693 nt of DNA from Escherichia coli (GTDB lineage Bacteria > Pseudomonadota > Gammaproteobacteria > Enterobacterales > Enterobacteriaceae): NCBI RefSeq assembly GCF_003334405.1, contig NZ_QOWM01000056.1; one strand, given 5' to 3'. A program made the translations under genes and the position numbers. Numbering within the stretch: the stretch's first letter is position 1; each line of letters opens with the position of its first letter. A model generated the notes under the pieces. The model was not told the origin of the DNA and did no database searches. It was given only the letters and a program-made list of their open reading frames with translations. Positions 1-693 of this stretch are shown one piece after another.

Positions 1-673
1 GGGTCTATACCCTGCAACTTAACGCCCAGTTAAGACTCGGTTTCCCTTCGGCTCCCCTATTCGGTTAACCTTGCTACAGAATATAAGTCGCTGACCCATT
101 ATACAAAAGGTACGCAGTCACACGCCTAAGCGTGCTCCCACTGCTTGTACGTACACGGTTTCAGGTTCTTTTTCACTCCCCTCGCCGGGGTTCTTTTCGC
201 CTTTCCCTCACGGTACTGGTTCACTATCGGTCAGTCAGGAGTATTTAGCCTTGGAGGATGGTCCCCCCATATTCAGACAGGATACCACGTGTCCCGCCCT
301 ACTCATCGAGCTCACAGCATGTGCATTTTTGTGTACGGGGCTGTCACCCTGTATCGCGCGCCTTTCCAGACGCTTCCACTAACACACACACTGATTCAGG
401 CTCTGGGCTGCTCCCCGTTCGCTCGCCGCTACTGGGGGAATCTCGGTTGATTTCTTTTCCTCGGGGTACTTAGATGTTTCAGTTCCCCCGGTTCGCCTCA
501 TTAACCTATGGATTCAGTTAATGATAGTGTGTCGAAACACACTGGGTTTCCCCATTCGGAAATCGCCGGTTATAACGGTTCATATCACCTTACCGACGCT
601 TATCGCAGATTAGCACGTCCTTCATCGCCTCTGACTGCCAGGGCATCCACCGTGTACGCTTAGTCGCTTAACC
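1..673 (-). rRNA. rrl: 23S (LSU) ribosomal RNA, 5' portion (domain I and start of domain II); partial, gene continues past window position 1
   Basis: Reverse complement of 637-673 reads GGTTAAGCGACTAAGCGTACACGGTGGATGCCCTGGC, the canonical mature 5' end of enterobacterial 23S rRNA. Further universally conserved 23S blocks follow in the correct order on the minus strand: CTGAAACATCTAAGTA (rc of 467-482), CCCCAGTAGCGGCGAGCGAACGGGGAGCAGCCC (rc of ~406-438), ACCGATAGTGAACCAGTACCGTGAGGGAAAGGCGAAAAGAACCCCGGCGAGGGGAGTGAAA (rc of ~173-231), and GGGTATAGACCC (rc of 1-12). Colinear over the whole window with no indels that I can detect by eye. Confidence 0.97.
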
Positions 674-693
674 TCACAACCCGAAGATGTTTC
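674..693 (-). other. pre-23S 5' leader / 16S-23S spacer segment directly upstream of the mature 23S 5' end (one strand of the presumed RNase III processing stem)
   Basis: Reverse complement of 674-693 is GAAACATCTTCGGGTTGTGA, immediately abutting the mature 5' end GGTTAAGCG. In enterobacterial rrn operons this flanking sequence pairs with sequence 3' of 23S to form the RNase III processing stem. The pairing partner lies outside the window, so the boundary and role are inferred from established knowledge rather than seen. Confidence 0.6.

Follow-up and report, generated by a model that had tools for sequence, protein, structure and literature searches.

Introduction

Both eukaryotic ES7 and I10, a functional artificial insertion in E. 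coli, are located at the tip of helix 25 of the large-subunit rRNA (PMC2441807), and their location indicates that this tip tolerates extra RNA. Helix 25 can also carry an intervening sequence (IVS) in bacteria; according to passages of PMC12013901 and PMC4990558 that cite Burgin et al. 1990, RNase III excises the intervening sequences of Salmonella. The helix-25 region of E. coli rrnB (J01695) has served in the literature as the comparator without an intervening sequence (PMC2801512).

Here we analysed a 693-nt stretch of E. coli DNA (the whole stretch is referred to below as the window), in which a small hairpin had been predicted, from the letters alone, to be a short, uninterrupted helix 25 of 23S rRNA. 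The window is the same as rrnB (J01695) and K-12 rrlB over all 693 nt, including the helix itself, GUGGGAGCACGCUUAGGCGUGUGACUGC, at 23S 533–560. The helix-25 IVSs of Salmonella and of Proteus/Providencia occupy the same site and have the same helix base, GUGGGAGC / GUGACUGC, as the window. By contrast with that class, the window keeps a 12-nt tip, has no insert and is not a member; compared with ES7 and I10, it is of the minimal bacterial kind, without any extension. The hairpin is almost certainly the normal, uninterrupted helix 25 of the E. coli 23S rRNA gene, which lies on the minus strand of the window.

Results

The window is the 5′ part of an E. coli 23S rRNA gene

The Rfam model RF02541 (LSU_rRNA_bacteria) matched window positions 1–673 on the minus strand (614.4 bits against a gathering threshold of 50 bits; E = 7.5e-201; model positions 1–716), with the match truncated at the RNA 3′ end. 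From this mapping, the 23S position equals 674 minus the window coordinate, and the window divides into two parts:

1–673, minus strand: 5′ part of the 23S rRNA gene, nt 1–673 (domain I and the start of domain II), from RF02541 and identity to annotated E. coli 23S
674–693, minus strand: pre-23S leader, the 20 nt directly upstream of the mature 5′ end, sense GAAACATCTTCGGGTTGTGA, the RF02541 match ending at 673

The leader shows no differences among four K-12 operons and is part of the spacer, which base-pairs with the 3′ trailer and so makes up the stem that RNase III processes; its pairing partner is outside the window. The RF02541 alignment omits 34 consensus positions (model 272–305, a hairpin) at window ~404–405 (23S ~269–270). 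Given that reference E. coli has the identical sequence, the omission is normal for E. coli and no deletion peculiar to the window. A match to the snoRNA sR10 (window 206–255; 16 bits against a threshold of 45; E = 0.13) was rejected as chance because it sits within conserved 23S sequence.

Megablast against complete E. coli genomes matched the window in 5426 of 5426, with a median of 7 places each and 37,974 places in all. The best match was at least 99% identical in 3206 E. coli records, many matches were 693/693, and all of the E. coli matches listed fell under annotated '23S ribosomal RNA'. In K-12 MG1655, rrlB, rrlD, rrlE and rrlG are 100% identical to the window over 693 nt, while rrlA, rrlH and rrlC differ from it by 1–3 substitutions. 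The match in ER1709, a K-12 derivative, is rrnG (16S, tRNA-Glu, 23S and 5S, between clpB and kgtP), where the annotated start of 23S is 20 nt inside the 693-nt match. The matching ER1709 23S is 2904 nt, the same length as rrlG and rrlB of MG1655 and as an insert-free E. coli 23S; since it has this length, the ER1709 copy has no insert anywhere. As the original prediction had pointed out, the second IVS site, helix 45 (~nt 1170), falls outside the window, which spans only 23S 1–673.

The hairpin is the apical stem-loop of helix 25

On the plus strand, positions 121–134 read cacgc-ctaa-gcgtg, in which five perfect base pairs close a 4-nt loop, and since the gene is on the minus strand the RNA reads CACGC-UUAG-GCGUG. 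Helix 25, at RF02541 model positions 573–600, aligns to window 141–114 with zero indels. Both the hairpin itself and its equation with helix 25 at 23S 540–553 thereby agree exactly with what had been predicted; its assignment to domain I has to be corrected, because helix 25 belongs to domain II by the helix numbering of PMC2441807. The parts of the helix in the window are as follows:

114–141, minus strand: complete helix 25, 23S 533–560 (RF02541 structure line, folding)
121–134, minus strand: the hairpin, apical stem-loop of helix 25, 23S 540–553 (sequence, folding, covariation)
138–141 with 114–117, minus strand: lower stem of helix 25, 4 bp, 23S 533–536/557–560 (folding)
136–137 with 118–119, minus strand: 2x2 internal loop of helix 25, G-A/G-A (folding)
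130–135 with 120–125, minus strand: upper stem of helix 25, 6 bp, 23S 539–544/549–554 (folding)
126–129, minus strand: UUAG tetraloop of helix 25 (folding)
122–133, minus strand: replaceable tip, 23S 541–552, ACGCUUAGGCGU (insert comparison; E. coli alleles)

The 5-bp stem is therefore the top of a longer, interrupted helix of 10 bp (4 + 6 bp), for which RNA folding gave −16.2 kcal/mol, and −14.6 kcal/mol when it was set beside insert-bearing helices. The lower part of this helix showed no variation in any enterobacterial sequence compared.

A perfect 5-bp hairpin is not significant on its own, as the window contains eight of them against 3.3 ± 2.1 in dinucleotide shuffles, so that the case for this one is made by homology and covariation. 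These numbers (about three per shuffled 693-nt sequence), together with a repeat search with a 6-nt seed in which the 121–134 hairpin was not listed, would suit an inverted repeat that arose by chance and has no structural significance. That such a palindrome should align column for column to the consensus helix of the bacterial LSU covariance model, and that the helix should fold with z = −2.8 against shuffles, makes this explanation scarcely credible. Covariation points the same way: among seven enterobacterial alleles, 100% of cells were paired across 11 pairs, compared with 23–73% when the partners were slid, in an alignment of seven sequences only that was registered by hand and whose pair counts lean towards structure because N-padding to structural register was used in place of plain MAFFT, which left the short alleles out of register. 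In the same seven alleles, both sides had changed in four of the five variable pairs, and the covariation score was reached by 0 of 500 shuffles.

Inserts in other genomes replace the same 12 nucleotides

To characterise helix-25 inserts elsewhere, 100,044 species genomes were scanned for the flanks GTACAAGCA and CCTTTTGTATAATGG lying 91–151 nt apart instead of 31. This gave 33 insert-bearing loci, gammaproteobacterial in origin, from sources that include Photorhabdus, Xenorhabdus, Providencia, Prodigiosinella, Izhakiella, Arsenophonus, Grimontia, Haemophilus and Pseudoalteromonas, along with others and one contig of Escherichia sp. MOD1-EC7003. None of the 33 loci found with exact flanks in the 100,044 genomes was from Salmonella, either because the Salmonella representative is without an exact-flank copy or because the copy was not assembled. 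The original prediction had listed Salmonella, Yersinia and Proteus as carriers of an IVS in helix 25; for Salmonella this is borne out by a copy from serovar Senftenberg (described below), while for Yersinia a passage of PMC4990558 places the site at helix 45 instead.

In the 33 loci and the one Salmonella copy, the insert sits between the conserved GUGGGAGC and GUGACUGC, and the segment that it substitutes is 23S 541–552 only. Nearly all loci have the helix base GUGGGAGC...GUGACUGC, and a few, some of them from distant taxa, have one-base variants or a short deletion. The insert segment is roughly 80–130 nt long, for a net gain of ~70–115 nt, and usually starts with CCCACCAC and finishes with GUGGUGGG. 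Insert-bearing helices have ~16 extra contiguous pairs above the conserved base and a 14–16-bp perfect basal stem, and fold at −65 to −71 kcal/mol versus −14.6 for the window helix. In Providencia stuartii NCTC11800, two rrl copies carry the same insert, and one of them is without 3 nt at the 3′ junction (...GGUGGGACUGC versus ...GGUGGGGUGACUGC), giving a shorter conserved helix base.

Surveys are reported to have found inserts to be absent in Escherichia. The 478-nt contig of Escherichia sp. MOD1-EC7003 contains, on its minus strand at 272–441, a helix-25 insert of 126 nt, which is 87% identical to the insert of Photorhabdus asymbiotica, and so the genus Escherichia is not free of helix-25 inserts. 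Its 288-nt 23S flank has 3–4 differences from E. coli, 9 from Salmonella and 40 from Photorhabdus. The insert may have been acquired laterally; the shortness of the contig leaves an assembly chimera as the alternative.

The window has no intervening sequence at helix 25: the gap from GTACAAGCA to CCTTTTGTATAATGG is 31 nt, as in K-12, versus 103–147 nt in the 33 insert-bearing loci. Neither the extra 90–130 nt in place of the helix tip nor a long near-perfect stem of the kind that is an RNase III substrate was found in the window, and alignment to RF02541 without indels, and to E. coli and Salmonella rrl with no insertion at helix 25 relative to E. coli, upheld the prediction of an uninterrupted helix.

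The same holds widely in E. coli. Blastn against the 5426 complete E. coli genomes gave no match for an insert of the Escherichia sp./Photorhabdus type or of the Salmonella Senftenberg type. With a 72-nt probe that spans the uninterrupted helix, 37,899 places were found in complete E. coli genomes, which against the 37,974 places of the whole window puts the uninterrupted helix in at least 99.8% of E. coli copies, with 75 of 37,974 places (0.2%) unaccounted for in this comparison; per-record searches give the best place only, which makes it an indirect check for inserts across copies.

A short helix 25 also occurs in Salmonella

Salmonella rrl copies for comparison were taken from PLSDB, from chromosome fragments labelled 'plasmids'. 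Some PLSDB 'plasmids' carrying rrn operons are up to 4.9–5.4 Mb, a size from which the rrn-bearing records are evidently chromosomes or chromosome fragments. The copies compared with the window were:

S. Typhimurium SJTUF10484: short helix 25, 30 nt; 97.4% identity to the window
S. Senftenberg NCTC10384 'plasmid 2': short helix 25, 30 nt; 97.3% identity to the window
S. Senftenberg NCTC10384 'plasmid 4': short helix 25, 32 nt; 96.7% identity to the window
S. Senftenberg NCTC10384 'plasmid 3': net insertion of 101 nt; 97.5–97.7% identity in the flanks

The insert-bearing Senftenberg copy has a flank-to-flank gap of 132 nt, and the single strain NCTC10384 holds three helix-25 forms together, one with an insert and two short. 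In S. Typhimurium LT2, the 98/99-nt insert is said to have been assigned to helix 25 by Mattatall and Sanderson in 1996. Five of the seven LT2 rrl genes have the 83-nt insert only, without the 98/99-nt insert (PMC2672173), and a passage of PMC4990558 states that the insert is not present in every operon of a strain. With short Salmonella copies in existence and inserts that are copy-specific, a single short helix 25 is no argument against Salmonella.

The window might on these grounds be an rrl copy from Salmonella or another enteric genus that happens to be without a helix-25 IVS, given the 30–32-nt helices of SJTUF10484 and of two NCTC10384 copies and the larger insert missing from five of seven LT2 genes. 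What decides the matter is the rest of the sequence. The short Salmonella copies are only 96.7–97.4% identical to the window and their tip sequences differ from the window's. SJTUF10484 and Senftenberg 'plasmid 2' have 12–13 substitutions outside the tip, and the Salmonella differences outside the tip are at 23S 78, 137, 142, 264, 284/285, 348/349, 353/354, 626 and 645. Citrobacter freundii is 96.7% identical to the window with 20 differences outside the tip, Klebsiella pneumoniae 96.0% with 24, and E. coli 100%. An origin in Salmonella or a neighbouring genus is thus effectively refuted, and we give it next to no weight. Judged by sequence identity (100% versus 96.0–97.4% in the nearest genera), the source of the window is E. 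coli-type, a term that does not separate E. coli from Shigella here, the collections searched being without Shigella genomes. The original prediction had favoured Escherichia over Salmonella because the helix is short; the conclusion is correct on the grounds of identity, while the reasoning is weak in view of the short Salmonella copies and the insert in MOD1-EC7003.

One further record came up in E. coli LR-72, whose plasmid pLR-72_5 (1896 bp, circular) is 23S-like over its entire length, 81% identical to the window, and annotated 'rRNA prediction is too short'. Contamination or an assembly artefact is a more probable origin for this record than a true replicon.

The helix 25 tip is polymorphic within E. 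coli

The tip of helix 25 (window 122–133, 23S 541–552) is the main polymorphic site of the 693-nt stretch in E. coli. At least five E. coli tip alleles of 11–14 nt were found, which differ by whole-hairpin replacement:

ACGCUUAGGCGU: the window and K-12 rrlB/D/E/G; exact ~72-nt probe match in 2742 records
AUGCUUAGGCGU: K-12 rrlH
CUCUUUAUGGG: ATCC 8739; exact ~72-nt probe match in 824 records, and 1615 more at 95–99%
ACAGAGCAAUCUGU: O157:H7; exact ~72-nt probe match in 1024 records
ACCCUUUGGGGU: E600003, with the same allele in C. freundii MGH283; exact ~72-nt probe match in 8 records

Across 5434 E. coli records, the 72-nt probe for the window allele matched exactly in 2742, at 95–99% in 431 and at 90–95% in 2259. 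In the K-12 rrlH allele, a single C-to-U substitution within the tip converts one C-G pair to U-G. For ATCC 8739, all six of the columns that differ from the window over 693 nt are within 541–552, and for O157:H7 this is true of 10 of 11. On folding, all tip alleles had the same architecture, with pairing kept through compensatory changes. The 'E. coli-type form' named in the original prediction is accordingly right as to shortness, although there is no single such sequence. This polymorphism fits a surface hairpin that is constrained only to pair, and it is in keeping with the functional artificial insertion reported for the same tip in E. coli, at the site of eukaryotic ES7 (PMC2441807).

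The window allele and the O157:H7 allele were each matched exactly in strain E2865, so that tip alleles can coexist in one genome. The tip ACCCUUUGGGGU is shared by E. coli E600003 and C. freundii MGH283, the C. freundii sequence having 20 other differences from the window; either ancestral polymorphism or intergeneric exchange would account for the sharing. A bolder and rather doubtful reading is that the tip is an exchangeable hairpin cassette in Enterobacteriaceae, with lateral transfer or gene conversion recurring at this spot alone. It draws on the whole-hairpin alleles, their coexistence, the allele identical to that of Citrobacter and the Photorhabdus-like insert at the same 12 nt in a non-coli Escherichia, and it does not bear on the allele of the window itself, that of the K-12 reference. 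A literature search on the diversity of E. coli 23S turned up no directly relevant earlier study; the tip polymorphism in E. coli has probably already been described in work on rrl diversity.

The unusual polymorphism of the tip in E. coli, and the patchy distribution of inserts across Enterobacterales, one Escherichia sp. genome included, could also be taken to mean that the short tip is the scar of a secondary IVS loss in the E. coli lineage and not the ancestral state. We consider this exceedingly improbable, because the window helix matches the bacterial consensus model exactly in length, forms of 26–32 nt are also seen in Klebsiella, Citrobacter and the short Salmonella copies, and the stem base that marks inserts, CCCACCAC...GUGGUGGG, is kept in none of the short alleles.

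Discussion

Read as the normal helix 25 of E. coli 23S rRNA, the hairpin in the window is a genuine but ordinary feature that was known before. The helix consists of a conserved lower part (a stem of 4 bp and the tandem G-A internal loop, together with G-U and C-G pairs) and a 12-nt tip (23S 541–552) whose sequence and length are free to vary while a hairpin persists. From established knowledge of the ribosome, the tip would be exposed on its surface. RNase III requires long double-stranded RNA. The short tip, in a helix of 10 bp in all that is interrupted by an internal loop, would not provide a long double-stranded substrate for this enzyme, and with no such substrate RNase III would not be expected to cleave here, leaving the 23S rRNA continuous at helix 25. 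In other lineages, an insert takes the place of these 12 nt, adding ~70–115 nt and forming a long near-perfect stem that is excised by RNase III.

The window holds a textbook E. coli 23S sequence, and its rRNA is expected to stay unfragmented at helix 25. Helix-25 inserts differ from copy to copy and from strain to strain, so that whether a single rrl copy has one is a poor taxonomic marker; the taxonomic information is in the surrounding substitutions and in the sequence of the tip allele.
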